Below the pieces are notes generated by a model. The model saw nothing but the letters and a program-made list of their open reading frames with translations. It ran no database searches and had not been told where the DNA came from. Below, one piece after another: positions 9,148 through 61,358 of a stretch of DNA of 64,000 nucleotides (the first letter of the stretch is position 1; each line of letters begins with the position of its first letter). A program made the translations under genes and the position numbers. This stretch comes from an uncultured Muribaculaceae bacterium (GTDB lineage: Bacteria > Pseudomonadota > Alphaproteobacteria > Rs-D84). The stretch covers positions 163-64,162 of the forward strand of contig CAZUED010000003.1 in assembly GCA_964619545.1 (NCBI GenBank), in the 5' to 3' direction.

Positions 9148-9215
9148 AAAAGTTAATAATCACTACATTTCCAATAAACTTGCACTGACAATTTCTGTGT
9201 GGTATTATTTCAATC

Positions 9216-11072: not shown

Positions 11073-11205
11073 GAAAATCTCCGATTTTTATTTAATTTTC
11101 AAAGTGCAATTGTGGTGTCGGCTTCACCGACAACCTATAAATAATTATTTTACCTGTGAGCAACGCGAACACATTAATTGCACATTGCACTTTGCTAATT
11201 GCTCA

Positions 11206-11601: not shown

Positions 11602-11739
11602 TTTTTCTCTCTCCATTTTACCCCGTATAATTACTGGGTATGCATTCCTACACTAAAAATAATTGAATTATATCAAATGATACAACTACAAATAGATACT
11701 GCGGTTAGGTTTCTGACATTTTTTGTTTTTTGATAAATT

Positions 11740-11764
11740 AAAAAAATTCGCCACTTGGGCGAAT
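11740..11764 (-). terminator. rho-independent terminator ending the virB8-9-10-P3 operon
   Basis: attcgcc-loop-ggcgaat hairpin followed on the minus strand by a T-run, 27 nt past the P3 stop codon. Confidence 0.7.
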
Positions 11765-11790
11765 CGGAGAATTGTAAATACTAAATAAAA

Positions 11791-16300: not shown

Positions 16301-16321
16301 CGCAGACTCCTGAGCCTTTTA

Positions 16322-48392: not shown

Positions 48393-48420
48393 AAAACGCG
48401 GCGGTTGCCGCGTTTTATTT
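48393..48420 (+). terminator. rho-independent terminator
   Basis: aacgcggc-ggtt-gccgcgtt plus T-run. Confidence 0.7.
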
Positions 48421-48764
48421 TATCACTGCTGATTTTATCAAGGATAAGTCTTCTTTAATTCCGTCTATTTTTAATTGCAGCTGACCAATACCCGATTCCA
48501 GAATTGTTGTTCTGTTTTCCAGCGTGGTTATGCGGGCATCAGATTTTTTATTTTTTCCATCTCTTCGTTTGACAGCATAGATTGCATATCAAATGCAGCT
48601 GCAATAAAAGATTGTTCTTGAATATCGTATGGGTTGGAAGTTTTTTTGTCAGCCAATTTCTTTTCAACAACTGCTATCAATTCTTTTTTATGTTTTTCAA
48701 ACATCCGAGTGGCATTTATAGATTCTGCAACTTTTTTTCAATCATCTGTAAGCACTAATGGCAT
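48415..48764 (-). pseudogene. disrupted small coiled-coil gene downstream of the terminase (in-frame TGA plus frameshift)
   Basis: good SD (aaagga) and ATG at 48764; codon 9 is TGA (48738-48740) beside an A7 run; reading continues KKVAESINATRMFEKHKKEL...EEMEKIK, then shifts frame at the A-runs 48541-48558 into SDARITTLENRTTILESGIGQLQLKIDGIKEDLSLIKSAV. Confidence 0.6.
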
Positions 48765-48819
48765 AATTCATCCTTTGTAGTACAGGTCAATTATACTTTT
48801 AAATAATGAGTTTTCAATA

Positions 48820-49656
48820 TTAAATCCTAAACTCGGTTTTTGCCTGGACGGGACGCAAAGTTTGACCAAGTGGACGAACCGGGGCTGCGTTCAGGTCCAG
48901 CGCCCCAGCAATCGCGTCCAGACCGTCATCGTGCCCCGAATCGCCCATCGGCGTCCAACCCAGCATTTCAGACAGCAATGGAGTCGCCTGAATTCTTTGG
49001 TGGGCCCAAATACGACCCGTCGTCAGTAGTGGCTCTACCGCGTTCAGAATCCGAGATTCCTTGCGCGTGTGATTTATGATTTTTTGGATAACAACAGATT
49101 GGTCGTGTTTTTTTGCGACTTCGCGCAAAATCTCGGGCAAGGCGTTTCCCAGCCCATTTACTTCTATCCCGATTATATGCGCGCCATGTATTTTCATAAA
49201 TCCCAAAACTTTCTCGCACTGAGTCGCCAGTGGATGCAAATCATTGTCATCCACAATCAAGTACCGAACATCATGAATAAATGCGCGCCGATTTTTATCG
49301 TCTCGGTAAAGCAAGACACATACACTGGAATCGGCCCCTTTACGCCCGCCTGATGGATCCCAATAGCACGATACGCCCGTTATCAAAAATTCTTTATCAA
49401 TTCCCAGTTTCGCTGTGCGAGCATCAAACTCTCCGTCATAAAAATAAAGCGCGCCTGGATCCAGCCGCGCTTTATCTTCCGAAATATATTCCAGCATCAT
49501 TTGACTGGAAAAATGACGTGGTCCGACCGTTTCCCTTAATTCTTCTATTTTTTCCAGTGGAAAAATATCTGGCCATGCAGGTATGCCGCCAGAATCAATT
49601 ATCGGTAGGCGGAATAATTGGTATCCGCGTAAAAATGGCAAGGTCTGTTCATTCAT
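48820..49656 (-). CDS. phage terminase large subunit, C-terminal nuclease half (fragment of a split gene)
   Basis: WPDIFPLEKIEELRETVGPRHFSSQMMLEY, then RNaseH-like motifs CYWDPSGG, IIGIEVNGLGN, HDDGLDAIAGAL; no SD, and it starts right after the dnaB terminator. Confidence 0.7.
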   Translation of the reverse strand: MNEQTLPFLRGYQLFRLPIIDSGGIPAWPDIFPLEKIEELRETVGPRHFSSQMMLEYISEDKARLDPGALYFYDGEFDARTAKLGIDKEFLITGVSCYWDPSGGRKGADSSVCVLLYRDDKNRRAFIHDVRYLIVDDNDLHPLATQCEKVLGFMKIHGAHIIGIEVNGLGNALPEILREVAKKHDQSVVIQKIINHTRKESRILNAVEPLLTTGRIWAHQRIQATPLLSEMLGWTPMGDSGHDDGLDAIAGALDLNAAPVRPLGQTLRPVQAKTEFRI

Positions 49657-49726: not shown

Positions 49727-51268
49727 TCAATCTAAAAATGGAACGTCAGCCATATCAGGCACTTCGGCATTACCATTGCTTGCGCTAGCAGGTGCAGAAT
49801 AAGATGGTTCTTCCGATTGATAACCTTCATCCAAATCATCAAACAAAGAATATTCCCCACTGAATTTCAGTTTAATCGTTTCTGGTTTTCCATGACGATT
49901 TTTACCGATAATCAATTCGGCCTTACCGCGTGATGCGTCCAGACGCTTGCGCCAATTGTCTGCCTTGTTGGTTGTAAATTTTTCGGAATGGTCACCGACA
50001 ACATCAGATGGATCGCGACCCTGCAAGTAATACTCTTCACGATAAGTGAACATAACAATGTCGGCATCTTGTTCAATAGACCCAGATTCGCGCAAGTCCG
50101 ACAGCAATGGTCGTTTGTCATCGCGTGATTCGACTGCGCGGGAAAGCTGAGACAGCGCGATAACCGGCGCATCCAATTCCTTGGCCAACATTTTCAGACC
50201 CCGGGTGATTTCTGATAATTCATTAACACGGCTGTCGTTTTTACGAAGAGTTGGTGACTGCATCAACTGCAAATAATCGATAACGATAAGTGCAATACCG
50301 CCATGCTTACGGGCAATACGGCGTGCGCGTGCGCGCATCATAGGGACACTCATCCCCGGGGTATCATCAACCAGCAAAGGAACATTAGATAGTGCATCAG
50401 AATACTGCGACATCCGCAGAAACTCTTGATCATTCAGGCTGCCGTTACGCATAGAACTGGATGGAATTTTCGCCTGGGACGACAGAACGCGAGCCGCCAG
50501 TTGAGATGCTGACATTTCAAGGCTGAAAAACACGACCGCGCCACGATACTTTTTATTTGCGCGATTTGCCATAATTGCGCTGGCCGCGTTAAAGGCAATA
50601 TTCATCGCAACCGTGGTCTTTCCCATAGCAGGACGACCAGCAATTATTACCAAATCAGACTTGTGCAATCCGCTGATAGATTTATCCAAATCACGCAGAC
50701 CTGTGGTCAGACCCGATAATTTTCCATCGGCCTTATAAGCAATTTCGGCTTCTTCTAATGCAACGCGAAGTGCCGCCCCCAGTGGAGATGCCCCGCGGTC
50801 GGACGATCCGGTGGTGGATAAATCAAACAGTTTTTGTTCGGCTATTTCTATTTGTCTGTCTACCGGATTGTCTAAATCTTCGACAAATGCCGAATCGGTA
50901 ATGTTTTGACCTATATTAATCAGGTGACGCCGCAAAGCATTATCATAAACTATTTTGGCATAGCTTTCTATATTTACAACAGATGCGCCGGCACTCGCCA
51001 GTTCTGACAAATACTCGACCCCGCCGACAGAATCAAGAACACCTTGTTGTGTCAGATAGTTTTTTGCCGTAATGATGTCAAATGGGATTCCGGCGGCGAA
51101 TTGCTTTTCGGCAAGTTTAAAAATCTCTTGGTGGGCGGGATGAGTAAAATGTTCAGAGTGTAAAAAATCGCTGACTTTTTCCAGTGCGCGGTTGTTCATC
51201 AAGACTGCTGCCAGCACGGCTTGCTCAGCTTCCAAATTAGTCGGTAAAGACTTGGGAGTAAAATCCAT
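49727..51268 (-). CDS. dnaB: replicative DNA helicase DnaB (with an acidic C-terminal tail)
   Basis: DnaB N-domain (PTNLEAEQAVLAAVL), Walker A GRPAMGKTT, IDYLQLM, SQLSRAVE; ~45-aa acidic tail ...EVPDMADVPFLD. Confidence 0.93.
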   Translation of the reverse strand: MDFTPKSLPTNLEAEQAVLAAVLMNNRALEKVSDFLHSEHFTHPAHQEIFKLAEKQFAAGIPFDIITAKNYLTQQGVLDSVGGVEYLSELASAGASVVNIESYAKIVYDNALRRHLINIGQNITDSAFVEDLDNPVDRQIEIAEQKLFDLSTTGSSDRGASPLGAALRVALEEAEIAYKADGKLSGLTTGLRDLDKSISGLHKSDLVIIAGRPAMGKTTVAMNIAFNAASAIMANRANKKYRGAVVFFSLEMSASQLAARVLSSQAKIPSSSMRNGSLNDQEFLRMSQYSDALSNVPLLVDDTPGMSVPMMRARARRIARKHGGIALIVIDYLQLMQSPTLRKNDSRVNELSEITRGLKMLAKELDAPVIALSQLSRAVESRDDKRPLLSDLRESGSIEQDADIVMFTYREEYYLQGRDPSDVVGDHSEKFTTNKADNWRKRLDASRGKAELIIGKNRHGKPETIKLKFSGEYSLFDDLDEGYQSEEPSYSAPASASNGNAEVPDMADVPFLD

Positions 51269-51371: not shown

Positions 51372-52388
51372 ATGGCATGGGAAGAAATCTGTTTTCCAAA
51401 TAACCTTAGAAATATAAGGTTGTCGCGCGGAATGCGTATGACCGAAGTCGCCAAAAAATCCGGCCTTTCGCTGTCAGCAATGTCCAAGGTTGAAAAGGGG
51501 GTGCGCCGGTTAAAACAAAGTCAACTGATGCAGCTTTGCACAATTCTGGACTGCAAGTTGGCCGACATCTTTATAAAGGCTGACGATGAAAAGGCTACCA
51601 AATGGCAATCTGAAATGCAACGTCGCTTGACTGAAAATGAAACCGCTGGTTTGAAGGTATTTGGTGCGGGGATACGGGTTTTACGCCGTGAAGTTGGTAA
51701 GACTATCGCCCAGGCGGCCCATGATGCTAAGATGACGCTAAGCGTATATCACAAGATAGAAACTGGCCAGCGAGAGGTTTATGAAAACGAAATAGAAAAT
51801 TTGGCAAAGGCAATGGGTAAATCGATTGATGAAATGTTCAAGGCAATCGCAGGACTTTATAATTCTGGTGCGCTGAACAGACAAATCGACAAGGCCGAAG
51901 AACGTGTTCGCGAAGCGCTGAAAGTTGGTAAGTCCGAATCTAATTTAGATATGGGCAGCGCGATTTATGGCGCAACGGTTTATGATTCTGTGCGGAAAAA
52001 TTTGGTTCCGGTATATGGAACCGCGAATGGAAAAAATATAGTATTTATGAAATCTGATGACAATATGCTGCCACCATTGCCAAAGATAAAAAGCGGCAGT
52101 GGGATATATGCTGTTCAGGCACCTGCTGGTCGGTTGGGACCGCTGTTTCCGCACAAATCACATTTGCTTGCAAATCCTGGTATAATGCCTGTGGCTGGTG
52201 ATTTAGCGGTTTTGTTTGATGATGATTACGAAAATATCGAGCCTCGTACCCAGGCGACCGCACGGATTGTCATGCTGAAAGAGGATAAAAATGGCACGCT
52301 AATCGGTGTTCAGTCTTATCCAGAAGAGAAAATACAGATAAAGAACGGCAAAAAGCGACTGCATAAAATTGTGCAGATTGTCTGTTAA
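51372..52388 (+). CDS. transcriptional regulator with two tandem XRE-type HTH domains and a C-terminal S24/LexA-like domain lacking the catalytic Ser
   Basis: HTH1 LRNIRLSRGMRMTEVAKKSGLSLSAMSKVEKG, HTH2 IRVLRREVGKTIAQAAHDAKMTLSVYHKIETG; C-terminus VPVYGTANG...AGRLGPLFP...GDLAVLF...RLHKIVQIV resembles the LexA/CI fold but has GRLGP where GDSMxP is expected. Confidence 0.65.
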   Translation: MAWEEICFPNNLRNIRLSRGMRMTEVAKKSGLSLSAMSKVEKGVRRLKQSQLMQLCTILDCKLADIFIKADDEKATKWQSEMQRRLTENETAGLKVFGAGIRVLRREVGKTIAQAAHDAKMTLSVYHKIETGQREVYENEIENLAKAMGKSIDEMFKAIAGLYNSGALNRQIDKAEERVREALKVGKSESNLDMGSAIYGATVYDSVRKNLVPVYGTANGKNIVFMKSDDNMLPPLPKIKSGSGIYAVQAPAGRLGPLFPHKSHLLANPGIMPVAGDLAVLFDDDYENIEPRTQATARIVMLKEDKNGTLIGVQSYPEEKIQIKNGKKRLHKIVQIVC

Positions 52389-52411: not shown

Positions 52412-53047
52412 ATGAGAGAACTGACTTCCATAATAGCGCAGCGCTTGTTGAACTTGTATCGCCAGGCTCATGTGATTGATGGCGGCTGGGCAGCTGTTAA
52501 TAAGGCATTGTTGGCCGAGGCAGATAATGAAGTTCTGGCCGATTTGCAAAAATTGCCGAACGGGGGAAAGTTGGTTCAGCATATAAAAAATTTGCAATCT
52601 GGAAAAACGGAAGTCAGCGGAATAGAACGCGAAGTTATACCATATGGTGGTAAGATGGACAGCGCGGTAAAGGCAACGCAAATTTCCAACAAGGATTTGA
52701 AAGAGTTAGAATCTGCGCTGGCAGAATTTCAATCAGACGAAGAACATATTGAAAAAATTAAAAATTTATCATTTGTTCAATCTTTTGGTGAAAAGTGGAT
52801 TTCCGGGGTTCGGTCATCATTATCTGGCAAGCCAGAGTTAGAGAAAAAATGGCTTGAAGTTTCCAGATCCGCACGGGCATATGATTTATGGAATAAAGCC
52901 TATGCCGTTTTAATTCCGCCAGTTTCGGACAGAGCACGTGCCGAGATTCAGGCAGAATTATCTGAATATGAAACTTATCTGCCGATGTTTGGCGAAGACG
53001 GAACGCAACTTTTATCGCGACTCCGCTCATTTGTAAGCAGTTTGTAA
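52412..53047 (+). CDS. hypothetical protein (211 aa)
   Basis: intact ORF 24 nt after the regulator gene; terminator follows; no family recognised. Confidence 0.55.
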   Translation: MRELTSIIAQRLLNLYRQAHVIDGGWAAVNKALLAEADNEVLADLQKLPNGGKLVQHIKNLQSGKTEVSGIEREVIPYGGKMDSAVKATQISNKDLKELESALAEFQSDEEHIEKIKNLSFVQSFGEKWISGVRSSLSGKPELEKKWLEVSRSARAYDLWNKAYAVLIPPVSDRARAEIQAELSEYETYLPMFGEDGTQLLSRLRSFVSSL

Positions 53048-53077
53048 AAAAAACGCGGTGGTTCCCCGCGTTTTTTA
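53046..53077. terminator. bidirectional hairpin terminator at the right edge of the terminase-splitting segment
   Basis: aacgcgg-loop-ccgcgtt flanked by an A-run and a T-run; the stop codon of the terminase N-half lies inside the T-run. Confidence 0.65.
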
Positions 53078-53680
53078 ATTTTCAACCTTATAAATTGTGT
53101 CAACTGCATGTGGTGTGCCGATATAAATCATGGTGCCGCTAGGGGAAAGAATAAAGTCCAGTTCCCGCAGACGCATGCGTAACATTTCTCGTTTTTGAGA
53201 AGTATTGCTGGTGTTGGGAACTTCCACGTCATCGCAGATAATCATATCGGCGCGCTGACCTGTTATATTTCCATGAATACCTTGGCAGACTACAGAAGGT
53301 TCCCGAATTCCAACTTGGCGCGAGATTGTAATTTTATGCATTCCCCATTCTTTTTTAACGTTTGGCAATAAATCTCGGCATTCTGGATGATTTTCCAGAA
53401 TATGTTTTATATGTGACACCATTCTTGATGCCAGATTGGATTCTGCAGAAAGAATAAGTATACGTGTTTGTGGTCTTATAGAAAGTACCCATGCGGCGAA
53501 AATGCCAACAACTGATGATTTTCCTGAATGTCTAAATGCCAATAAAAGCGCCCGACGGGGCGGATTTTCAAGGCTGTTTACCAGAAATCTCAAAATGTTT
53601 TTATGATGTGTTGGTGTTTCCATTCCCAGTATCTGGTTCCATGCATCTAAAAAATTTTTCGCGGATTCATAAAGTTCCAT
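53075..53680 (-). CDS. phage terminase large subunit, N-terminal ATPase half (fragment of a split gene)
   Basis: Walker A-like AFRHSGKSSV, Walker B MIICDDVE, coupling motif IYIGTPH; reading frame ends 10 codons later in the neighbouring terminator; start taken at the ATG at 53680 (ORF extends to 53731). Confidence 0.7.
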   Translation of the reverse strand: MELYESAKNFLDAWNQILGMETPTHHKNILRFLVNSLENPPRRALLLAFRHSGKSSVVGIFAAWVLSIRPQTRILILSAESNLASRMVSHIKHILENHPECRDLLPNVKKEWGMHKITISRQVGIREPSVVCQGIHGNITGQRADMIICDDVEVPNTSNTSQKREMLRMRLRELDFILSPSGTMIYIGTPHAVDTIYKVEN

Positions 53681-54215
53681 AATCATCAATACTTTCACTG
53701 GGGCCTGTATCTGCCGGGGTTCCATAATCATTTATCATTCGCGGCATGGCAGTACTCAGCACTGATAAAAGATTATTATAAAGCCCCAGTGCAGCGCCTC
53801 CACCAGTTTTATCTTCTATTAATTCTTTAATGACATCCATCTGATGCACGACATTGTCATGAATATTTTGCCACTGGGCAATACTGATTTCAACTGAGTT
53901 TAAATCTCGGAAAGCCTCTAGTATAAAATTAAAATCTGCGTTCAGGTTTTCGGGATCAATTTTTGCAGCTGGCTGATAATCGATAAAGCGGGATAGACTT
54001 ATCTTGCGAAATATATCTATACGAGAATTTTGCACGGGTGGATTTGCAAAAGAAATTATTCCACCAATCATATTCTCATCATATTGCAAATTATATTCAG
54101 TAGAATCCAAAATAACTTCATTGATTGCCACATGAACGTCTAATGGCTGAAAAAAAGGAAAAGCAAAGGCAAAGCAATATGCTTCGCCGTCACCGACATA
54201 AGAAATCTTGTACAT
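53667..54215 (-). CDS. T7 gp17-like tail-fibre N-terminal (tail-attachment) domain only, 182 aa
   Basis: YKISYVGDGEAYCFAFAFPFFQPLDVHVAINEV...ISFANPPVQNSRIDIFRKISL...PENLNADFNFILEAFRDL follows the T7 fibre N-domain pattern; no shaft or receptor-binding part. Confidence 0.5.
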   Translation of the reverse strand: MYKISYVGDGEAYCFAFAFPFFQPLDVHVAINEVILDSTEYNLQYDENMIGGIISFANPPVQNSRIDIFRKISLSRFIDYQPAAKIDPENLNADFNFILEAFRDLNSVEISIAQWQNIHDNVVHQMDVIKELIEDKTGGGAALGLYNNLLSVLSTAMPRMINDYGTPADTGPSESIDDYGTL

Positions 54216-54232
54216 TTTATAACCTTTGTTTG

Positions 54233-54580
54233 TCAGGCAATCAATCCATCCAGTCTGGAAATGAATGATTTCAACAGATTGGATTTTGGTGTTTTTATTT
54301 TATAAAGCTTGTCCAGATTGGATTTCTTTTTTTCATCAAATGGTTCTTCGGTTTCTTCACGCAGTCTTTTCAGAACAGCCTCTTCGGTCATTCCTTTATT
54401 TGTCATTCCTGCGCTGCCGTATTTTGCACGTTGTGCGGCTAATGTTTTTTTTACCAGATTGATTTTTGCTTTTTCATCCGCCGCAATTTTTTCTAAAATT
54501 CTTTTTCGTTCTGACACGTTTTCTTTTTTGTCTTGTTTTTGATTTAAGATGTCTGTGACATCTGATACAAGTTGTCCCAT
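54233..54580 (-). CDS. Lys-rich helical hypothetical virion-associated protein (115 aa)
   Basis: intact ORF between the gp12-like and fibre-like genes; no family recognised. Confidence 0.5.
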   Translation of the reverse strand: MGQLVSDVTDILNQKQDKKENVSERKRILEKIAADEKAKINLVKKTLAAQRAKYGSAGMTNKGMTEEAVLKRLREETEEPFDEKKKSNLDKLYKIKTPKSNLLKSFISRLDGLIA

Positions 54581-54590
54581 TTTTTTCTCC

Positions 54591-56315
54591 TTAGATTAAA
54601 TACCAGCCTTCTACTGATATGCCCAGTATGCTTACAGGTAATGGTTCGCTACCCGATATAGTCCAAAGAGGACAGGTAGTATCGTCAATTGTTCCCAATG
54701 AACCTACAGAAACATCTCCGCAGTATCCAGGCGAGTCTACACCAAGTGCATCATTTGGAAGTTGTGCACGAACTGCATTTATAAATAAAGATTTGGTATT
54801 CAGGCATCGTGCGGAAATTTTATGCACTCGAATTTTTTTCGGAGCTCGTCCACTGGCGAATAAAGGCATCGCAGCAGCCGTATGTGAAAATCCGAATTGA
54901 CCAGAATCAAGAGTTTCTGCTGCTGAAAATTTTTCTATGAATACGCCTGATTCGCGCGCGACTATTACAAATGTTTCACCATTCAGCACAGCGACAGATT
55001 TGAATGATCCCAGTGTTTTGTAGATGCCCCAGGCAGAAATTTCCAATGCCGAGTTTTTATTCAGTACTGCCATGGAACCATCTGTCATCACCACAAACAA
55101 CTGGCGTGTTTTATCATTATATGCCAGATCCACGGGATGCTTCATCAAGTGACCGGAAATCGCGCACAAGTTTGGTGCATTGTAGTTTTCACCTAACTCA
55201 TCCATAATCATTTCTCTGATTTCGTTGCCACCTTTGGAAACAAAAATAGTGCTGCGGTCTATCTTTTGTGGCTGCAGATAAATCGAAGAAATACTTCCTG
55301 CATTGGTATGTTGTCTGATGTCCATGGATGATGGAGTTAATGGTTTTGCGCTGATTGCCCATTCGCCTGCTGTGGTTAAAATTTGTAAATTATCGCTGGA
55401 TACAACCGTGCAAATTTGTTGGCGTGCAGATGAAAGCAGTGTCAGAAAAATGGCTTGGTCATCCAATCCTGTTTCAGCATTAAAGTTTTGATGATCACCA
55501 ACGCATGACATCCAAACCCCACATGGCCACGCGCGCGAACCCCCAAATACCAATCGGTCCTGATGAAAAGTGATGCTGCGTGGCCATCCGCGGCGGACAC
55601 CAAATGCGGCTTCGCGCCAATCAGAAATTGCCGCACTGGGCAGCGAGTAAGTTCCATTAGTGTATGCAACGATAGTGGTAGAATTTACATACTCGTAAAT
55701 GACCCATTGCTTACCCATCAAGTAAAGTCTGCCATTGAGATTTTCAGGTGTCCAAAAAGCGGCACTGGCAGTAAAAGTAGCATAGTTATTCCCATTCGCA
55801 TTACTTGATACAGAAATTTTTATACCAGCTGCATCGTCAAATTTCATAAATGGCATATTTCGTGACATATCATCGTTTGTTGAAAAATCAAATGTGGACA
55901 GATAAAACGCGCCACCTGTTTTTTTCAGAACTCGTGGCTGAAAATCCTGATGCACGAAAATCATGGTATCAAAACGTTGCGCATATTGCATGTTACACAA
56001 TGCATCCGCGCCCCAAGGCGAGATCAAGGCCTGGACCATATTCTGACCATCATAAATTTTCATCTGACCATCAGAAATAGCCAGCATATAATTTTCTGAA
56101 TCGGAAATAGAAAAAGGAATCAAAATTGCACCATTTTTTGTCGCAGCAATCCGAATTGTTCCATTCCGCCGTGAAATAGCCCCCGATGCCAAGACATCCA
56201 TATTTTCCATACGCGACAAGCCGCGGGATGAAACATCCAAATCACCACGCGCAAAAAATTCTGGCGATACTTCCCCCAATGCGAAAGAGTTCTGATTGTG
56301 AATAAATTTTCCCAT
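54591..56315 (-). CDS. T7 gp12-like tail tubular protein B (nozzle)
   Basis: N-terminus HNQNSFALGEVSPEFFARGDLDVSSRGLSRMENMDVLASGAISRRNG parallels T7 gp12 (NLKGGISQQPDILRYPDQGSRQVNGW...GLQKRP); C-terminus PVSILGISVEGWYLI parallels NIIGCGWEGNYL; beta-rich. Confidence 0.6.
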   Translation of the reverse strand: MGKFIHNQNSFALGEVSPEFFARGDLDVSSRGLSRMENMDVLASGAISRRNGTIRIAATKNGAILIPFSISDSENYMLAISDGQMKIYDGQNMVQALISPWGADALCNMQYAQRFDTMIFVHQDFQPRVLKKTGGAFYLSTFDFSTNDDMSRNMPFMKFDDAAGIKISVSSNANGNNYATFTASAAFWTPENLNGRLYLMGKQWVIYEYVNSTTIVAYTNGTYSLPSAAISDWREAAFGVRRGWPRSITFHQDRLVFGGSRAWPCGVWMSCVGDHQNFNAETGLDDQAIFLTLLSSARQQICTVVSSDNLQILTTAGEWAISAKPLTPSSMDIRQHTNAGSISSIYLQPQKIDRSTIFVSKGGNEIREMIMDELGENYNAPNLCAISGHLMKHPVDLAYNDKTRQLFVVMTDGSMAVLNKNSALEISAWGIYKTLGSFKSVAVLNGETFVIVARESGVFIEKFSAAETLDSGQFGFSHTAAAMPLFASGRAPKKIRVHKISARCLNTKSLFINAVRAQLPNDALGVDSPGYCGDVSVGSLGTIDDTTCPLWTISGSEPLPVSILGISVEGWYLI

Positions 56316-56842
56316 TAGAACCTCGTTGATATAAGTGAAAAGTCAGGTATGTCATTGCTGGGTGACACAGTGCTGTCTATGAATTTTGCCGCGCGCAGCT
56401 CGGATTCAAACAATGCTGCAATGGTGCGTAATAAATTCTGGTCGCCGGTCAATGGCATACAGAATTCCCGTGCAAGTTGCAATGCAGCGACATTTGAAAA
56501 ATATGAAGGATAATTTTCTGGTCCCATTCGCACAACAGCAGTGATTGAAATTTTATCGGCCGGTGCAGAAATTCTGTTCCCGCTAGTTTGATAAAGCAAG
56601 CAATCACAATCCAAAACACGAAGAATTTCTACTGGCAAAAGAAAATCACCATCTGTGGTCTTGCTTAAATTGAATTTTTTCTGGGCAAATTTCCACGGAT
56701 GCGACGCCAGCAAAGAATCAATCGTAGTATCAAATAGGGTCTTTGCGACTTTGGCTGCAGCACTATCGTCGTTAAAAGACTGAATGGGATTTTCACCAAT
56801 TTTCAATAAAGCAATAGAACACAGATCAATTTTAGTAAGCAT
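56315..56842 (-). CDS. T7 gp11-like tail tubular protein A / adaptor
   Basis: DLCSIALLKIGENPIQSFNDDSAAAKVAKTLFDTTIDSLLASHPWKFA matches the characteristic N-terminal pattern of this family; stop overlaps the next start. Confidence 0.6.
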   Translation of the reverse strand: MLTKIDLCSIALLKIGENPIQSFNDDSAAAKVAKTLFDTTIDSLLASHPWKFAQKKFNLSKTTDGDFLLPVEILRVLDCDCLLYQTSGNRISAPADKISITAVVRMGPENYPSYFSNVAALQLAREFCMPLTGDQNLLRTIAALFESELRAAKFIDSTVSPSNDIPDFSLISTRF

Positions 56843-56865
56843 GGGGAACTCCTGACTTTTAACTT

Positions 56866-57108
56866 TTATGCCAAAGCACTGGTTGTTACATTCTGGGATG
56901 TGATGTTAATTTTTTTGATTACGGTGTTGTCGGAAGCATTGATAATTACAATGTCGCCAATATTCATCAAAGTGCGGACCGGATTAAAAAAACCAGTAGT
57001 ACTGATGGTCGCAATACTTTCTTGGGCGGCATAGTGCCACAGAGTAAATCCATTTGCATACGCAATAACGGACAAGTTTTTGTTTTGGAAATACATGAAA
57101 AACTCCAT
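56866..57108 (-). CDS. small hypothetical phage protein (80 aa)
   Basis: ORF 56866-57150, start taken at MEFFMYFQ...; sits between the capsid and gp11-like genes. Confidence 0.45.
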   Translation of the reverse strand: MEFFMYFQNKNLSVIAYANGFTLWHYAAQESIATISTTGFFNPVRTLMNIGDIVIINASDNTVIKKINITSQNVTTSALA

Positions 57109-57112
57109 TGTT

Positions 57113-57180
57113 TGAGGGATGAAGGAGGAAGTTTGAGGTAAAAAAATCAATAAAACTAAAACCTAATCCTTCATCCCTCA
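57113..57180. repeat. 14-bp perfect inverted repeat built from heptamers, just downstream of the capsid gene
   Basis: tgagggatgaagga (57113-26) is the reverse complement of tccttcatccctca (57167-80); 40-nt loop with further pairing; no T-run after it on the transcribed strand. Confidence 0.7.
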
Positions 57181-57188
57181 TTCTTTAA

Positions 57189-58004
57189 TTATTCGGCGCA
57201 ATTGATTTTGACGATCCCGTCCTGATCAATCAGCACGCTGCCCTGGGACATGCTGTTGCTGATAAAGTGCGCAGCGCGTTCGCCATTCCAAAAGATGTCA
57301 GATTTGACTTCTTGGCCACATGCATGACCGATAGCGGACGAGTGATACATAAAGCACTTACGCATATTGGTACCGGTTGGCAGGCCGTTATGCATAATCC
57401 AATTGATGCCCAACCACTTACGCAGTTCGAATCCACCAATCAAAGGTGTTTCGTTGCCGACGTATTCAGCCGAAACGAATTCATCCATAGACAAAAGCTC
57501 ATTCCACTGATGAACACCGACGACGCAGAATCTGCGACCATCGTCAGGAACGTCTTTAGAGTTCAATGCTTCGACCGCGGACAAAATAATTTCTTTGGTC
57601 AAAGCGGCAGTTCCATCTCCGACAGCGGTTGTTGCATTGGCCATAGATGTTATAATCAGCTCGTCAGTCTTGCGACCCAATGCATATGCACCTGCGCTTG
57701 CGACAACCCGACGTTCATCAATGTTGATTTTTAATTCATCCAAAGCATCAACCCAATCGCCCGCATAATAGTCCTGCAATACGCATTCAACAGGCTCGTG
57801 GTCCAAGTTCATGACAGGAACTAATCCGTGGCGAGATTTGGTAGTGGCAGTACCACGACCAACTTTTTGGAAAGTTGTACTGCTGCCTATAACGCCGGAT
57901 TTACTGCGTATTGTGTTGCGAAGCTTTGTCCCCATTTGTTGATAAGCAAGATGAACATCGGCCTCGAATTGTTTTACGAATATCTGGTCTATTGATTCAG
58001 ACAT
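57189..58004 (-). CDS. T7-like (HK97-fold) major capsid protein, 271 aa
   Basis: FVKQFEADVHLAYQQMGTKLRNTIRSKSGVIGSSTTFQKVGRGTA...LDELKINIDERRVVASAGAYALGRKTDELII parallels the T7 gp10 N-terminal pattern; strong SD aaggag. Confidence 0.7.
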   Translation of the reverse strand: MSESIDQIFVKQFEADVHLAYQQMGTKLRNTIRSKSGVIGSSTTFQKVGRGTATTKSRHGLVPVMNLDHEPVECVLQDYYAGDWVDALDELKINIDERRVVASAGAYALGRKTDELIITSMANATTAVGDGTAALTKEIILSAVEALNSKDVPDDGRRFCVVGVHQWNELLSMDEFVSAEYVGNETPLIGGFELRKWLGINWIMHNGLPTGTNMRKCFMYHSSAIGHACGQEVKSDIFWNGERAAHFISNSMSQGSVLIDQDGIVKINCAE

Positions 58005-58023
58005 AGTTTCTCCTTTTTGATTG

Positions 58024-58049
58024 AAAAAAACCGGACATTATTGTCCGGT
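58024..58049 (-). terminator. rho-independent terminator ~20 nt upstream of the capsid start codon
   Basis: minus strand reads gaccggaca-ataa-tgtccggt + ttttttt, then caatcaaaaaggagaaactATG. Confidence 0.6.
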
Positions 58050-58264
58050 CATAAATAATTTGTTTTTCAGGTTCCGCGCAAAAGCGCGCCGTAAAAACAA
58101 ATATGCGGGTTCGTCAGAATTGTATGTCTTTTTCTGATGCTATGTTTTGCCTTATTATATACCAATTGTCCTTAAATCCGTTTTAGTGGTAGTTGCGAGA
58201 AAACAGCACATTACAGCACTTCATAGGTTGTAATGGGGCATTTTAGCACTAGAAAAGCGGTAAT

Positions 58265-58292
58265 AAAAAATCCCGCTTTGCGGGATTTTTTA
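58265..58292 (-). terminator. rho-independent terminator after the KPAAKK-repeat gene
   Basis: tcccgc-ttt-gcggga hairpin with flanking A and T runs, 20 nt past the stop codon. Confidence 0.7.
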
Positions 58293-58311
58293 TTTCAATA
58301 ATGTAATTACA

Positions 58312-58764
58312 TTATTTCTTTTTAGCAACTGGCTTTTTCGCCGGGGCTTTCTTAGCAACAGGCTTTTTAGCAGCTGGTTTTTTCGCAGCTGGCTTTTTCG
58401 CCGGGGCTTTCTTAGCGACAGGCTTTTTGGCAACCGGCTTTTTAACCGCAACTTTCTTAGCAGCAGGTTTTTTAGCAGCAGGTTTTTTAGCAGCAGGTTT
58501 CTTTGCCATTGGCTTTTTAGCAACAGGTGCTTTTACTGCCAATTTCATAACTTTTTTTGCAGCTGGTTTTTTTGCTGGAGCTTTCTTAGCAACAGGCTTT
58601 TTAGCGGCAACTTTTTTTACAGCTGGTTTTTTTGCAACTGCTTTTTTCACAGCTGGTTTTTTAGCAGCAGGTTTTTTAGCAGCTGGTTTTTTTACAACGG
58701 GCTTTTTAGCAGCTGGTTTTGCAGTTGCTTTCTTTGCCGCTGGTTTCAAGAATGAAAATGCCAT
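58312..58764 (-). CDS. histone H1-like Lys/Ala/Pro-repeat protein (150 aa)
   Basis: MAFSFLKPAAKKATAKPAAKKPVVKKPAAKK... is almost entirely (A/V)KKPAAKKP repeats; strong SD aaggaaggagaag before the ATG at 58764; own terminator. Confidence 0.7.
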   Translation of the reverse strand: MAFSFLKPAAKKATAKPAAKKPVVKKPAAKKPAAKKPAVKKAVAKKPAVKKVAAKKPVAKKAPAKKPAAKKVMKLAVKAPVAKKPMAKKPAAKKPAAKKPAAKKVAVKKPVAKKPVAKKAPAKKPAAKKPAAKKPVAKKAPAKKPVAKKK

Positions 58765-58876
58765 TCTCTTCTCCTTCCTTTTTTTGTTTTTATAGAACAA
58801 AAAATTTTTGTTCTTGATTACATTTTATCTGAAACAAAAAAATTAGTAAAGCGAAAAGAAAAAAATTACATAAAAT

Positions 58877-59530
58877 TTATGAATATAATTTTTTGAAACC
58901 AGTTTCTATTTTACGAATATATTCTGAATCATGATCACGCCAATATTTTGGATCTTTCATCATGTTGCGTAATTCATTATCAGATAGTTTTTCTGATGCA
59001 TGATTTCCAGTTGCAACATCTGGTTCCATTGATTGCATCATTTTATAAATGCTTTGGATTCCCTGGGGTGTAGAGCACAATGACTCAAATGCATCAGATG
59101 GTAAAAACTTTTCACCGAATGCATTGATAGCCTGCATGGCATCTTTCATCTTTTCTTCGCTACCGAAAAAATTTTGTAATGTGGCGATTGATTCTGACTG
59201 GGCGCGCAAAGAGAAAATTTCTGACAATGCTGGGGATAAAAATTCTTCAGCTATCGAATAAATTTTTTCAACTTGCTTTGGAGTCAATCCTGCATCAAAA
59301 AATTTTTTGCGAATCGTTTCATCATCAAACATCGGATTTGATGGATATTCGTCAGCAGTCTTTGGAACCCCCAATGTGCGCATAAATTTTTCACGTGAAT
59401 TTTCGTCGGCATCTTCGCCTGGGATGGATACCATGGTCCCGATTTTCTTTTCCAGTTCGGAATAAGACTTAATCAAAGCATCGCTGTTTAATGTTCCATC
59501 ATCGTTTTGGAATTTTTCTGGAATTTGCAT
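58877..59530 (-). CDS. phage scaffolding (capsid assembly) protein
   Basis: MQIPEKFQNDDGTLNSDALIKSYSELEKKIG is a typical N-terminus of podovirus scaffold proteins; helical and acidic; SD aaagggga before the ATG at 59530. Confidence 0.6.
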   Translation of the reverse strand: MQIPEKFQNDDGTLNSDALIKSYSELEKKIGTMVSIPGEDADENSREKFMRTLGVPKTADEYPSNPMFDDETIRKKFFDAGLTPKQVEKIYSIAEEFLSPALSEIFSLRAQSESIATLQNFFGSEEKMKDAMQAINAFGEKFLPSDAFESLCSTPQGIQSIYKMMQSMEPDVATGNHASEKLSDNELRNMMKDPKYWRDHDSEYIRKIETGFKKLYS

Positions 59531-59720
59531 TCTTTCCCCTTTGAGTTGATTTGCGTAAGAAATATATCCCCGCAAGAGTAAAAATTGAATTCATAGTCGT
59601 AAAAACATTTTCATCACCAACAAGATATGCCGTGATTGCGGATAAAATTCCAACGCCGGAAATTATGTAAGTCCGTTGTCCTGCAAAGAATCCGCCACTT
59701 AAAATTTTTGACATTCGCAT
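59499..59720 (-). CDS. small 2-TM membrane protein with a basic C-tail (holin-like)
   Basis: two hydrophobic segments (IISGVGILSAITAYLV, IFTLAGIYFL) and the tail RKSTQRGKNANSRKIPKR; ggag SD; immediately follows the hydrolase gene. Confidence 0.45.
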   Translation of the reverse strand: MRMSKILSGGFFAGQRTYIISGVGILSAITAYLVGDENVFTTMNSIFTLAGIYFLRKSTQRGKNANSRKIPKR

Positions 59721-59737
59721 AAAAAACTCCGTTCAGG

Positions 59738-60148
59738 TTATTTATAGAAAAGCAGCCCATCAATATCTGCAATACTTCCTTTATCTGTTGCCCAATCTGG
59801 CAAAATGTCTTCGCGATGAAATCGAACTGCGCTACGAACAGAATCAGGCAGTTTCCCATTAATCATTCTTTTTAAGACACGCAAACACATTTGGAATTTT
59901 GGGTCATCTTCGGAAATTAAAAGATCGCTGTGGCGGGAAGATTCTTTTTGCAAACATTCAAATAAAGATTCGTCCGCTGCAATACAAGAAAAAGGCTGCA
60001 TAGATTGTTGATAAATATTTCCAATCATAGACGCCATGGCTTCAACCGCTGGCAAACTTGACGTGCGCGTTTCGGCATAAATAATTTTTCCCAGTTGGAC
60101 AAGTATTGTTTTTTCATCCTGAAACTCATTACGAGGCATTGTTTGCAT
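59738..60148 (-). CDS. SleB/Hydrolase_2-like cell-wall hydrolase (endolysin candidate)
   Basis: LGKIIYAETRTSSLPAVEAMASMIGN and ...AVRFHREDILPDWA...ADIDGLLFYK follow the SleB-type pattern common in alphaproteobacterial phages and GTAs; SD aggaag before the ATG at 60148. Confidence 0.5.
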   Translation of the reverse strand: MQTMPRNEFQDEKTILVQLGKIIYAETRTSSLPAVEAMASMIGNIYQQSMQPFSCIAADESLFECLQKESSRHSDLLISEDDPKFQMCLRVLKRMINGKLPDSVRSAVRFHREDILPDWATDKGSIADIDGLLFYK

Positions 60149-60205
60149 TCGGACTTCCTTTGTATAAGAAAGACCCGCGCAGCAATGCACGGGTCAAAAT
60201 AACAT

Positions 60206-60292: not shown

Positions 60293-60976
60293 TTAAATGC
60301 TGATCTCGTCCCCATATGCCATTATGTATTCTTGTCCAGCGCGCAGCACCAATGCGCCATCATCATTCAGTCCGCATAAAACTGCCTGGCGTCCACGATA
60401 GGTAATAGTTTCGTTCAGATTTGCTGCCAAATCCATCCATCTATTTTTAACAATGACGAAGCCGCGAGATAACCAAATATCCATCTGTTTTGCCAAGGTT
60501 GCCAATAATTCGTCGCGAGAAATCTGGTTTGTATAATCTGAAACTTTAGTTGTTTGGTAATCAGCTCTTACACTGGGATTTGATTTAATGTTTATTCCAA
60601 TTCCGATTATTACAAATTCTTTGGCATATTCGATTAAAATCCCACTAATTTTTTTGCCATCTATTAAAATGTCATTAGGCCATTTTATTTGTGGCTGTAT
60701 ACCGAAAGAAATTAAAGTTTCTGCAACAGCAACGGCAACAGCGTATGAAAGTCTGGGCTCGCGATTTTCGATTTTATAAATAAAGCTGGCATACAGATTG
60801 CCATGATGAGAAACCCAAGTGCGACGATAGCGTCCGCGACCATTACTTTGTGAATCAGCTAAAATAATGGTGCGATCGGTTGCGTTTCCCAAACGAATCA
60901 AGTCCTGGGCATACGATTGAGTGCTGGGAATTTTATCAAAAGAGATAAGTTTATAATTTATATTTTCCACCTTCAT
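60293..60976 (-). CDS. birA: biotin--[acetyl-CoA-carboxylase] ligase (no N-terminal HTH)
   Basis: GRGRYRRTWVS (GRGRxGRxW) and KWPNDILIDGKKISGILIE. Confidence 0.9.
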   Translation of the reverse strand: MKVENINYKLISFDKIPSTQSYAQDLIRLGNATDRTIILADSQSNGRGRYRRTWVSHHGNLYASFIYKIENREPRLSYAVAVAVAETLISFGIQPQIKWPNDILIDGKKISGILIEYAKEFVIIGIGINIKSNPSVRADYQTTKVSDYTNQISRDELLATLAKQMDIWLSRGFVIVKNRWMDLAANLNETITYRGRQAVLCGLNDDGALVLRAGQEYIMAYGDEISI

Positions 60977-61358
60977 TTTTTATAAATTCTTTTCCAAAGA
61001 TTTTACGCAGCTGATAGATTGTCGTGCCCACCGCGTTTGTTGCGGCGCCTGGTGCATAGCCTAACTGCTGTTGCAGTTCACCGGCGTTTGCACCAAATGC
61101 GCCCGCGTGGTGCAGTGCAATAATTATTTTTTTCTGCGAACCTGAAAGAGTTGTAACACCGCAGATTTTTTTAATAATTGATACTTCGCGTGCATCACGC
61201 AGACGCAAAATTTCGGCTTTTAATTCAGCGGGAGAAAGTTTTTTATTTGCGGAAAAAATTACATCAGCAGATTCGCGTGCAGCAAACCCCGCGCCCAGGT
61301 CGGTCAGAATCCCGCGCCAAACCATATCATCAGTCCAAATCGTAATTCCATTAAACAC
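60951..61358 (-). CDS. OmpR/PhoB-type winged-helix DNA-binding domain protein without a receiver domain
   Basis: C-terminal LSGSQKKIIIALHHAG...NAVGTTIYQLRKIFGKEFIKNEGGKYKL matches the Trans_reg_C pattern; start uncertain. Confidence 0.5.
   Translation of the reverse strand: MFNGITIWTDDMVWRGILTDLGAGFAARESADVIFSANKKLSPAELKAEILRLRDAREVSIIKKICGVTTLSGSQKKIIIALHHAGAFGANAGELQQQLGYAPGAATNAVGTTIYQLRKIFGKEFIKNEGGKYKL

Follow-up and report, generated by a model that had tools for sequence, protein, structure and literature searches.

The stretch of DNA analysed here (64 kb in full, called the window below, all coordinates being positions within it) contains a cluster of T7-type podovirus head, tail, lysis and packaging genes (Table 1). 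The cluster begins with a SleB-like hydrolase gene, which has terminator-like sites of birA (60227-60172) upstream of it, and ends at a terminator at 48420-48389. The eleven minus-strand ORFs listed in an earlier note on this DNA all exist, and their assignments are backed by profile searches; the bounds proposed there (53075-60148) are too short, since the element reaches 48415 and includes the nuclease half of the terminase. A genome scan recovered 514 stretches encoding a capsid relative, and the synteny and conservation counts given below refer to the best 80 of these loci. They come from MAGs of Alphaproteobacteria from guts and termites, many of which carry the name Candidatus Enterousia (order Rs-D84); all relatives of the element are MAGs. 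The nearest phages of the gene set are podophages with a PF19821 capsid, e.g. Pelagibacter phage Hodr.

Table 1. Features of the cluster, listed from high to low position in the window.
Feature	Position	Strand	Evidence
SleB-like cell-wall hydrolase, endolysin candidate	59738-60190	-	phrog_938 endolysin, E 4e-6
73-aa holin-like protein, two hydrophobic segments	59499-59720	-	read from sequence
T7-type scaffolding protein	58877-59575	-	PF05396, E 5e-9; phrog_3742, E 8e-15
KPAAKK (Lys/Ala/Pro-repeat) histone-H1-like basic protein, between scaffold and capsid	58312-58800	-	PF07382 HC2, E 2e-21
Structured 5' leader of capsid gene	58029-58135	-	hairpin A, hairpin B, intrinsic terminator
Major capsid protein	57189-58004	-	PF19821, E 5e-69; phrog_3437, E 9e-73
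o94, small conserved head/neck-region protein	56866-57150	-	phrog_18004, E 8e-10
Tail adaptor, T7 gp11 / tubular protein A type	56315-56842	-	phrog_394, E 5e-33; PF17212, E 8e-5
Tail nozzle, T7 gp12 / tubular protein B type, 574 aa	54591-56315	-	phrog_376, E 9e-83
o115, 115-aa basic helical protein	54233-54580	-	phmmer to post-nozzle ORFs
Tail-fibre stub, N-terminal tail-binding domain only	53667-54215	-	weak PHROG matches and phmmer
Terminase large subunit, ATPase half, separate gene	53075-53731	-	phrog_38 positions 270-458, E 1e-40
o211, clade-restricted all-helical protein	52412-53047	+	
HTH338, regulator with two Cro/C1-type HTH domains	51372-52388	+	PF01381, PF13560, PF13443
DnaB, cellular replicative helicase, between terminase halves	49727-51268	-	NF006606, 607 bits (cut-off 540)
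Terminase large subunit, nuclease half, separate gene	48820-49656	-	phrog_38 positions 481-710, E 5e-39; PF22530
Deletion scar	48415-48809	-	comparison with L088 and L176

The hydrolase is homologous to a 136-aa protein of phage Hodr and is found in 64 related loci; its match to Pfam Hydrolase_2 (PF07486, E 0.0025) is sub-threshold. The holin-like protein, for which profile searches gave no family match, shows 51-82% identity over 64 loci. In relatives, these two lysis genes are joined by one for an 81-aa membrane/coiled-coil protein and, in some lineages, by a second lysozyme. The relatives' head genes encode the scaffold, the KPAAKK protein and the capsid, the last behind a terminator-ending RNA leader. 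In the 65 loci measured, the space between scaffold and capsid is taken by a KPAAKK-type gene, with medians of 126 aa and 77% K+A+P; one locus or more yielded an ORF low in K+A+P (minimum 0.20). In the window this gene is followed by its own terminator (58290-58262). The leader consists of hairpin A (~58135-58105), hairpin B (58103-58057) and an intrinsic terminator (58050-58029) ~25 nt ahead of the capsid start. It is conserved in 79 of the 80 loci, 72 of the 79 having a T-run terminator, and in hairpin B 80% of cells are paired, against at most 55% when the pairing is slid, with GC/AU swaps present. A covariance model of the leader finds a single copy per locus and zero copies in the phage relatives, and no Rfam family matches it. 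In the phage relative L002 the scaffold-capsid gap is too small for a KPAAKK gene. Judged from these comparisons, the KPAAKK protein and the terminator-ending leader are additions specific to the bacterial element.

Homologues of o94, the true start of which is probably at 57096, lie between capsid and adaptor in every phage relative. The nozzle has 574 aa in the window versus 632-918 aa in the phage relatives; a weak match to Phage_nozzle (PF25675) is recorded for the relatives' nozzle. The following protein, o115 (mean column identity 74%, 36 sequences), matches post-nozzle ORFs of L145, L173, L096 and L171 (phmmer E 3e-7 to 2e-3), and is a probable internal or tail-associated virion protein in the T7 gp13 position, not a small terminase. 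The fibre stub matches the N-termini of the phage relatives' 237-852-aa fibres (phmmer E 1e-11 to 1e-13); it is present in 56 of the 80 loci and missing from about a quarter of related genomes, and in L048, L092 and L006 the ATPase half comes straight after o115. Large core proteins are absent wherever examined, and profile searches and phage-relative comparison recognised no small terminase in the element or its relatives.

The two-gene terminase and its interior block

The two terminase halves jointly span the single ~500-aa TerL of the phage relatives, with at most 8 residues between them, and are separated by a three-gene block of o211, the regulator HTH338 and dnaB. The break lies at the ATPase-nuclease linker and is universal among the clade genomes examined. 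In the ATPase half, Walker A (FRHSGKS), Walker B (DDVE) and GTPH show little or no variation (76 sequences), and dN/dS is 0.02-0.11; little or no variation is likewise seen in the nuclease half for the putative catalytic acidic residues D100 in YWDPS, E164 and HDDGLDA (66 sequences). At L006 and L094 the halves are unlinked, yet both are conserved. Because the split is universal in the clade and the catalytic motifs are kept in both halves, it is ancestral and under purifying selection, and not, as first proposed, a sign of decay. No functional precedent for a split large terminase was found in the literature.

Within the block, HTH338 (mean distance 0.227, syntenic in 71 loci) has a C-terminal 149 aa with no match in Pfam. 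Assignment of the helicase as a phage_DnaB was rejected (411, below the cut-off of 499), and in the window's lineage dnaB is inverted compared with its orientation in most relatives. Genes for a type IV secretion system lie nearby.

Conservation and inheritance in related genomes

The 80 loci share one common gene order, adjoining birA and with the cell's dnaB inside; in some termite-gut lineages the cluster is divided over two loci. Besides the lysis and head genes, relatives contain o94, the adaptor, the nozzle, the gp13-position protein and sometimes a fibre stub, followed among the packaging genes by the two-gene terminase, a shortened T7-type portal (PF12236) directly after the nuclease half, and then Bbp19. 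A portal is present in 62 of the 66 loci with the nuclease half, and two of the other four have a flank of 669-1,562 nt, with no match. The adaptor (79/79 loci), the nozzle (76/79) and TerL_C (65/66) are full-length. A dN/dS comparison across relatives, which the earlier note had suggested, gave NG86 values of 0.00-0.23 for every gene in 14 genome pairs (scaffold 0.02-0.23), i.e. purifying and not neutral, in the same range as BirA, DnaB and BamA. With mean protein distances of 0.134 for the capsid (81 genomes), 0.171 for DnaB, 0.177 for the portal and 0.332 for BirA, the capsid is more conserved than DnaB and the portal about as conserved.

Distances of the cluster genes correlate with those of DnaB and BirA (r 0.55-0.80), cluster GC3 tracks that of the host (r 0.93 over a range of 0.25-0.70), and synonymous divergence is in line with that of flanking host genes. 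No integrase, replication or RNA polymerase gene was found in the cluster or its 10-kb flanks, and no att repeats in cluster or flanks; the lack of these genes, of core proteins and of a small terminase, remarked on earlier for the window, extends to the relatives examined. The gene set thus appears as a fixed, vertically inherited chromosomal feature of reduced-genome gut alphaproteobacteria of the order Rs-D84 (Candidatus Enterousia and relatives). That it is a mobile, PICI-like satellite or an active temperate phage re-integrating at one site is very improbable, despite the CI-like double-HTH regulator and the listing of many of the loci as viral contigs in IMG/VR. Such a reading is contradicted by the missing mobility genes (no integrase, primase/replication gene or att repeat), by the essential cellular dnaB within the element, and by the host-matched synonymous divergence and GC3; the IMG/VR contigs, which contain dnaB, are short pieces cut from this same place in the chromosome.

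Portal loss in the window's lineage

A tblastn search of the entire 64-kb window with the portals of Hodr, L002 and L003/L070 as its three queries found no portal, bearing out the earlier note, which had expected the portal upstream of the scaffold; in relatives it follows the nuclease half. In the scar, what is left of the 5' part of a small accessory gene (48809-48540) runs into what is left of the 3' part of the 81-aa membrane/coiled-coil gene (48554-48415). The scar accounts for the supposed pseudogene at 48415-48764, previously taken as a sign of decay. The deletion, of 2.2-3.3 kb, was mapped to the base: compared with L088, 3,280 bp (9987-13266) are replaced in the window, and compared with L176, 1104-3273 are missing. 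Lost with it were the genes for the portal, for a peptidoglycan hydrolase and for Bbp19, along with part of one for a small membrane protein. Independent assemblies (SRR31702759/60 and SRR8925824; three or more samples) show the same layout without a portal, which is therefore not an assembly artefact. The capsid leader of the window has its 5' part replaced, with hairpin A damaged, and in another strain of the same species the adaptor-nozzle-fibre block is gone via a microhomology-mediated deletion. Within the deleted lineage, the phage-derived genes have 4 nonsynonymous versus 1 synonymous change, too few for significance.

The portal deletion is recent, and the window strain can at most make portal-less shells; this copy is most likely non-functional and starting to decay. 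Some termite-gut lineages do have a two-locus cluster, so dispersal occurs, and the remaining ORFs of the window are intact; nevertheless it is very unlikely that the element still works here with the portal and other deleted genes elsewhere in the genome, as in multi-locus GTAs. Fused gene remnants were left in place, unlike in a clean relocation, the capsid leader is damaged, and a 15-billion-protein collection contains no portal of this lineage (of the portals 86-100% identical to those of the nearest relatives, none comes from it), though its capsid and TerL_C do occur there, from four samples.

The deleted portal, the gene remnant, the terminase in two pieces, the second deletion variant and the few, statistically insufficient substitutions could together suggest an ordinary defective prophage, recent, T7-like, decaying neutrally and functionless in any lineage. 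At the level of the family, neutral decay is refuted by the kept gene order and full-length ORFs over the 80 loci, the dN/dS of 0.00-0.23, a capsid more conserved than DnaB, co-divergence with host genes, ameliorated GC3, and a universal terminase split with catalytic motifs kept in both halves, leaving this explanation scarcely credible. The decaying remnant favoured in the earlier note thus describes the window genome (portal deletion, leader damage, second deletion in the same species) but not the family. For the family, the domesticated GTA-like element given there as the minority option is strongly supported by synteny, dN/dS, co-divergence, ameliorated GC and the lack of mobility and replication genes, the window copy being inactivated.

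A podovirus-type GTA-like candidate and its known counterparts

The locus is probably an undescribed podovirus-type GTA-like element, i.e. an anciently domesticated, vertically inherited podovirus gene set that has been inactivated in the window's lineage. In the proposed mechanism, the leader terminator would be read through in a subpopulation and procapsids would assemble on the portal; the two terminase polypeptides would rejoin non-covalently and package chromosomal DNA; the adaptor and nozzle would close the head, and the lysis genes would let the particles out. These may then deliver DNA of the host to sibling cells, in the manner of a gene transfer agent. Against this stands the lack of core/ejection proteins beyond the gp13-position protein, together with truncated or absent fibres, which leaves entry into a Gram-negative recipient without an explanation. 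The capsid protein is no shorter than in the phage relatives; there is no sign of a GTA-style small head, and the entire cluster might fit into the head.

A less likely but serious alternative is a domesticated particle that serves some purpose other than gene exchange (programmed lysis releasing DNA-filled or empty shells, an adhesion or delivery device toward a partner cell, or a bacteriocin-like agent). It would fit the missing ejection proteins, complete fibres and recognisable small terminase, the highly basic KPAAKK protein added within the head module, the type IV secretion system nearby, and the predicted dependence of Rs-D84 bacteria on partners (PMC12306168). By contrast, both terminase active sites and the portal are under strong constraint, which indicates DNA packaging, and the tail is of a minimal podovirus kind, in which profile searches found neither a toxin nor an effector domain.

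The phage relatives are temperate T7-like podophages with a PF19821 capsid: Hodr (OQ414635), the uncultured MT838907 and the IMG/VR contigs L096, L145 and L173. They share with the element, in the same relative order, the portal, Bbp19, scaffold, capsid (46-66% identity), o94, adaptor and nozzle, and also the post-nozzle protein, fibre N-domain, terminase and SleB-like hydrolase. The podophages differ in having a single ~500-aa TerL, portals of 507-585 aa (407-413 in the element), fibres of full length (596-852 aa) and additional genes for virion proteins or replication, and lack the dnaB/HTH338/o211 block and the leader RNA. Capsid-forming PICIs and other phage satellites likewise have a partial virion gene set in a bacterial chromosome, but are mobile, with integrase, replication and helper-exploitation genes; the element lacks these and co-diverges with its host.

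The GTA of Bartonella (BaGTA) is similarly a domesticated phage cluster, conserved in a host-associated alphaproteobacterial lineage and physically tied to a replication function. BaGTA, which is not T7-like, is linked to a run-off replication origin, whereas the association here is with the dnaB gene itself. The source virus of RcGTA had a long non-contractile tail. RcGTA-type GTAs occur in Alphaproteobacteria (Rhodobacter, Caulobacter, Dinoroseobacter) and also in protist endosymbionts (PMC9254644). Like RcGTA, the element is a phage-derived head/tail/terminase cluster, chromosomally fixed and passed on vertically in a large clade of Alphaproteobacteria, evolving under purifying selection, lacking genes for replication and integration, in some cases spread over several loci, and kept even in very small genomes. 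Unlike RcGTA, it would be an independent domestication, from a T7-like podovirus (PF19821 capsid, PF12236 portal, gp11/gp12-type tail), with a two-gene terminase, an embedded dnaB, no recognised small terminase and a capsid protein not visibly reduced. FpGTA of the gut bacterium Faecalibacterium (Firmicutes) is also a short-tailed, podovirus-like GTA-like element, with a ~10 kb head/packaging operon and separate tail/lysis genes, for which particles, ~9-kb DNA and proteomics were reported (PMC12946183, 2026). Unlike the Rs-D84 element, it has this experimental support, a terminase that is not split and a candidate for the small terminase; no link between the two was found.

The literature found agrees with the earlier note that no T7-type GTA has been described. 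Being inherited vertically and kept intact in hundreds of species, the gene set is a candidate for such an agent and, if the proposed reading is true, would represent a new T7-like kind of GTA, separate from the domestication that gave rise to RcGTA.

The T7-like cluster and its relatives

The window is bacterial chromosome, with rpoB/rpoC-sized ORFs, tRNAs, 5S rRNA and genes for BamA, DnaB, BirA and pyruvate phosphate dikinase (PPDK). All eleven minus-strand ORFs listed in the earlier note are present beside birA, between 60190 and 53075, and profile searches back their assignments, including the T7-like succession of scaffold, capsid, tubular protein A and tubular protein B; the coordinates that the note gave were too narrow, the element reaching on to 48415. 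The large terminase (TerL) is encoded by two separate genes, for an ATPase half and a nuclease half, which lie 3.4 kb apart and enclose a 211-aa protein (o211), a double-HTH regulator (HTH338) and dnaB. A LexA/CI-type peptidase assignment for the C-terminal domain of HTH338 found no Pfam support.

Features of the cluster and its surroundings in the window
Feature	Position	Strand	Match
135-aa ORF (o135)	60951-61358
Hydrolase	59738-60190	-	phrog_938 endolysin, E 4e-6
T7 scaffold	58877-59575	-	PF05396
HC2-like KPAAKK protein	58312-58800	-	PF07382
Capsid leader RNA	58029-58135	-
Major capsid	57189-58004	-	PF19821, E 5e-69
Small ORF (o94)	56866-57150	-	phrog_18004
Adaptor	56315-56842	-	phrog_394, PF17212
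Nozzle	54591-56315	-	phrog_376, E 9e-83
Fibre N-domain	53667-54215	-	weak PHROG hits
Terminase ATPase half	53075-53731	-	phrog_38 positions 270-458
Terminase nuclease half	48820-49656	-	phrog_38 positions 481-710, PF22530

The 135-aa ORF overlaps the 5' end of birA; it is found in synteny in all relatives, with 31-73% identity, and by eye its C-terminus resembles a winged-helix DNA-binding domain, without a supporting family match. Elsewhere in the window, T4SS parts at 14006-17797 and 45583-46275 comprise a TrbI/VirB10-like protein (764 aa), a CagX/VirB9-like protein (491 aa) and a weak VirB8-like protein that adjoins BamA, so the genome, though reduced, retains a T4SS.

The capsid has 3,908 homologues in a large protein collection, the best 120 of which are 71-92% identical, many of them on contigs of hundreds of kb from alphaproteobacterial MAGs. 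A scan of one genome per species gave 514 stretches encoding a capsid relative; the best 80 of these come from MAGs of gut and termite origin, many of which bear the name Candidatus Enterousia, a member of the order Rs-D84, whose genomes are mostly <1 Mb (PMC12306168). Tblastn with all window proteins against these best 80 of 514 loci revealed one arrangement beside birA, with dnaB inside: o135 and birA, then hydrolase, holin-like protein, scaffold, KPAAKK protein, capsid, o94, adaptor, nozzle, a 115-aa protein (o115), in some loci a fibre stub, and the TerL ATPase half, followed by o211, HTH338, dnaB and the TerL nuclease half. The adaptor is full-length in 79 of 79 related loci, the nozzle in 76 of 79, DnaB in 68 of 68 and the nuclease half in 65 of 66. 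In the lineage of the window (dnaB at 49727-51268) and its relatives L003 and L004, dnaB is inverted; most relatives compared (L007, L009 and others) have it in the same orientation as HTH338 and o211 and divergent from the nuclease half. Three public MAGs tagged ‘uncultured Muribaculaceae’ (CAYJAG01, CAZPLT01 and CAYJKO01; loci L003, L004 and L063) contain these contigs of alphaproteobacterial origin, suggesting that the MAGs are mislabelled or contaminated. MAG JAFTTY01 (L010, L029, L069) is probably a mixed bin, because it contains three different cluster copies, one nearly identical to that of another MAG.

In the human faecal phage fragment L002 (MT838907; capsid 64% identical), the gene order is portal, Bbp19-like, scaffold, capsid, o94, adaptor and nozzle. 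With its portal as query, a 407-413-aa portal (PF12236) was found after the TerL nuclease half in 62 related loci, directly adjoining it in most and at most about 1.3 kb away in the rest; their identity to the portal of the nearest relative is 75-100%. The T7-type portal of the relatives is displaced to a position after the terminase, and downstream of it lie a peptidoglycan hydrolase in some lineages, Bbp19 (PF25181), an 81-86-aa coiled-coil protein with a single membrane segment, and then host genes. The slot after the portal varies by lineage, usually holding a peptidoglycan hydrolase (L086-L091, L094, L176, L177), with GH108 (395 aa), Phage_lysozyme (166 or 398 aa) and a 145-aa protein among its variants, and is empty in many Enterousia genomes; the post-portal hydrolase may be what is left of a lysin once associated with the virion.

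Inheritance, constraint and remodelling of the element

The dN/dS comparison proposed in the earlier note indicated purifying selection: values (Nei-Gojobori, 14 genome pairs) were 0.00-0.23 for every cluster gene, the same range as for BirA, DnaB, BamA and PPDK, and synonymous divergence agrees with that of the host genes on either side. Mean protein distance over about 80 species is 0.134 for the capsid, 0.171 for DnaB, 0.177 for the portal, 0.227 for the TerL ATPase half, 0.332 for BirA and 0.397 for the nozzle, and pairwise distances of cluster proteins correlate with those of DnaB and BirA (r 0.55-0.80; BirA versus DnaB, r 0.70). The GC3 of the phage-derived genes follows that of the host over 0.25-0.70 (r 0.93). 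The embedded DnaB is of the cellular type, since it scores 607 bits with the alphaproteobacterial equivalog model NF006606, above the cut-off of 540, and does not pass the phage_DnaB model. As the earlier note had observed, the cluster lacks integrase, replication and RNA polymerase genes; none occurs in the cluster or the 10-kb flanks of the window and the relatives L086-L095, and no T7-like RNA polymerase, DNA polymerase or primase-helicase was found in the window’s cluster or the relatives’ flanks. Many IMG/VR contigs with this capsid are cut-outs of the same chromosomal locus, dnaB included.

These results describe a vertically inherited, constrained, virus-derived gene set with nothing for self-propagation. 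A satellite of the PICI or cf-PICI kind fits poorly with an element that has no integrase, att sites, replication module or mobility and co-diverges with its host. The decaying prophage remnant favoured in the earlier note is at odds, for the family, with this order-wide constraint, as patchy distribution, disrupted ORFs and relaxed selection are not seen across the order; it holds in part for the window’s species, in which two different deletions and a damaged leader occur. The domesticated element resembling a gene transfer agent (GTA), which that note also considered, agrees with a locus that is fixed, vertically inherited, constrained and without mobility genes, but the copy in the window is incomplete.

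Compared with its phage relatives the element is reduced in several parts. The portal has 407-413 aa versus 507-585 aa in the phages, the nozzle 574 versus 632-918 aa, and the tail fibre, missing from about a quarter of loci, 182 versus 596-852 aa. The large post-nozzle ORFs of the phages (320-1,247 aa) have no counterpart, and neither gp14-16-type core/ejection proteins nor full fibres were found in the element, in line with the earlier note; only a 115-aa post-nozzle homologue and the 182-aa fibre stub are present. The capsid protein is not visibly reduced. No small terminase is recognisable in the element; in the phages it was not identified by homology, although a short ORF precedes TerL in two of them (L173, L145). 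As candidates for it, o115 is homologous to the post-nozzle protein of the phage relatives, and o211, the 81-aa (o81) and 120-aa (o120) proteins and Bbp19 give no terminase signal. Relative to the phages the element has gained a structured capsid leader and the basic KPAAKK-repeat protein, which fills the scaffold-capsid gap in the 65 loci measured (median 126 aa, median 77% K+A+P), with at least one locus holding a low-KAP ORF (minimum 0.20).

The phage relatives L096, L145, L147, L173 and L175 encode a single TerL of ~500 aa, to which the window’s halves align at residues about 8-205 and about 209-470, with nothing missing. The split is universal in the bacterial element. Walker A, Walker B and GTPH are invariant or nearly so, as are the acidic positions D100, E164 and HDDGLDA of the nuclease half, which we take to be catalytic residues. 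With motifs kept in both halves, the split is ancestral and loses the value as a mark of decay that the earlier note gave it. Among 1.8 billion representative proteins searched, nearly all TerL relatives are full-length. Some termite-gut lineages carry the two halves at separate loci. Joining of the halves by a split intein or intron was considered and rejected: aligned to the intact phage protein they cover it with at most 8 residues between them and no extra sequence, and they are unlinked in some genomes. An intein would have no space, and each half must work as a polypeptide of its own. A terminase split at the same position, without dnaB, also occurs in L155 (IMGVR_UViG_3300039008_000341; 31% GC; 8416-13039), where two prepilin-like genes separate the nuclease half from a full-length portal gene, and a basic membrane protein replaces the KPAAKK gene; L155 may be a more distant domesticated lineage.

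Deletions in the window’s species

The absence of a portal recorded in the earlier note was upheld by a search for a cryptic one: three portal queries, taken to tblastn E = 10 for the two Rs-D84 portals, gave no match anywhere in the 64 kb. Comparison with the nearest species explains the gap. Window 49692-48810 aligns up to position 9986 of L088 and window 48554 onward aligns from position 13267, such that 255 bp of the window replace 3,280 bp of L088 with genes for the portal, a GH108 hydrolase, a 174-aa protein and Bbp19, together with the 5' portion of the 81-aa gene. In L176, the other nearest species, a 120-aa gene lies between terminase and portal, and the window’s 255 bp are its 5' remnant, with the deletion junction at window 48540-48554. 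The pseudogene of the earlier note is therefore the scar of this deletion, made of fused gene remnants. The junction is identical in assemblies from SRR31702759/60 and SRR8925824. No portal in the large protein collection is attributable to the window’s lineage: the portal clusters closest to those of the relatives hold only sequences of the two sister species, whose own nuclease halves are only 78-82% DNA-identical to that of the window. The particle gene set is incomplete in the window, its deleted portal, Bbp19 and hydrolase genes being present in relatives. Since portal loss should block packaging and tail attachment, the window strain’s copy is best regarded as a natural knock-out of recent origin.

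A contig from ERR15663783 (L085), with an identical capsid protein, joins window 57012 to 53696 over the 10-nt microhomology GAAAGTATTG; this 3.3-kb deletion removes the 3' end of o94, the adaptor, nozzle, o115 and fibre stub, and is a second, independent, microhomology-mediated lesion of the element in the window’s species. The window’s capsid leader departs from those of L003 and L085 upstream of about 58128, its 5' part being replaced and the conserved GG of hairpin A gone. In the deleted lineage, phage-derived genes have 4 nonsynonymous to 1 synonymous changes versus 5:8 in other genes, a non-significant difference that is suggestive only. The TerL nuclease half is 81% identical to that of L088, versus 87-94% for neighbouring genes, and both its dN (0.13) and dS (1.29) are about double those of its neighbours, which looks like a recombination tract beside the deletion rather than relaxed selection.

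Capsid leader RNA and possible function

The capsid gene is preceded by a structured leader RNA of two hairpins followed by an intrinsic terminator, present in 79 of the 80 related genomes (L003-L082) and ending in a T-run terminator in 72 of the 79. Hairpin B is backed by covariation: 80% of cells are paired, versus at most 55% with slid partners, with compensatory GC/AU swaps, and the observed score was reached by none of 500 shuffles. Hairpin A is provisional, because a strict pattern fits only 14 of 75 leaders. Searched with a covariance model, each locus has exactly one copy and the phage relatives have none; no Rfam family matches. The leader may act as a riboswitch or as an antitermination element in cis. 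A 33-nt element common to the capsid and portal upstream regions, considered as an operator, is only a common terminator hairpin.

The intact gene set has all that a procapsid, a DNA-packaging enzyme, a minimal short tail and lysis require. It would make DNA-filled particles carrying host DNA, and so act as a GTA, with expression gated at the capsid leader. The weak points of this reading are the missing small terminase, the missing ejection proteins, the truncated fibres and a capsid protein that is not visibly reduced; delivery to recipient cells is its weakest step, because ejection proteins and full fibres are lacking. The particles might instead serve a function other than gene exchange.

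The families found in the element are of T7 type (PF19821, PF12236, PF05396, PF17212, PF22530), not those of RcGTA head and long-tail genes, and it has no tape-measure or tail-tube gene. Among published systems, FpGTA of Faecalibacterium (PMC12946183) was the one podovirus-like, GTA-like element to turn up, and no link between the two was found. A literature search on Enterousia, Rs-D84 capsids, T7-like GTAs and split terminases returned no description of the element, and no paper tying Rs-D84 or Enterousia to capsids, phages or GTAs. The element is therefore seen as an independent domestication, with several unusual features. In a bolder reading, which falls somewhat short of probable, Rs-D84, with its <1-Mb genomes, would hold an independently domesticated T7-like GTA, unrecognised until now, with a two-polypeptide motor, an acquired histone-H1-like DNA-binding protein in its head module and a capsid operon gated by a new RNA (a riboswitch or processive-antitermination leader), the window being a natural portal knock-out.

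If DNA-carrying particles are made, this would be the first GTA from a T7-like virus, and Alphaproteobacteria would have invented a GTA a second time, independently, in a group of gut bacteria that is widespread but uncultured. The conserved leader offers a practical way to study what switches production on, and the portal-deleted and tail-deleted strains are natural mutants that can be compared with intact relatives from the same samples. The terminase split, constrained throughout the divergence of the clade, is a natural experiment on whether ATPase and nuclease domains must be covalently linked. Retention of about 12 kb of virus genes in such small genomes implies that they bring a real benefit, possibly gene exchange that counters mutational decay.
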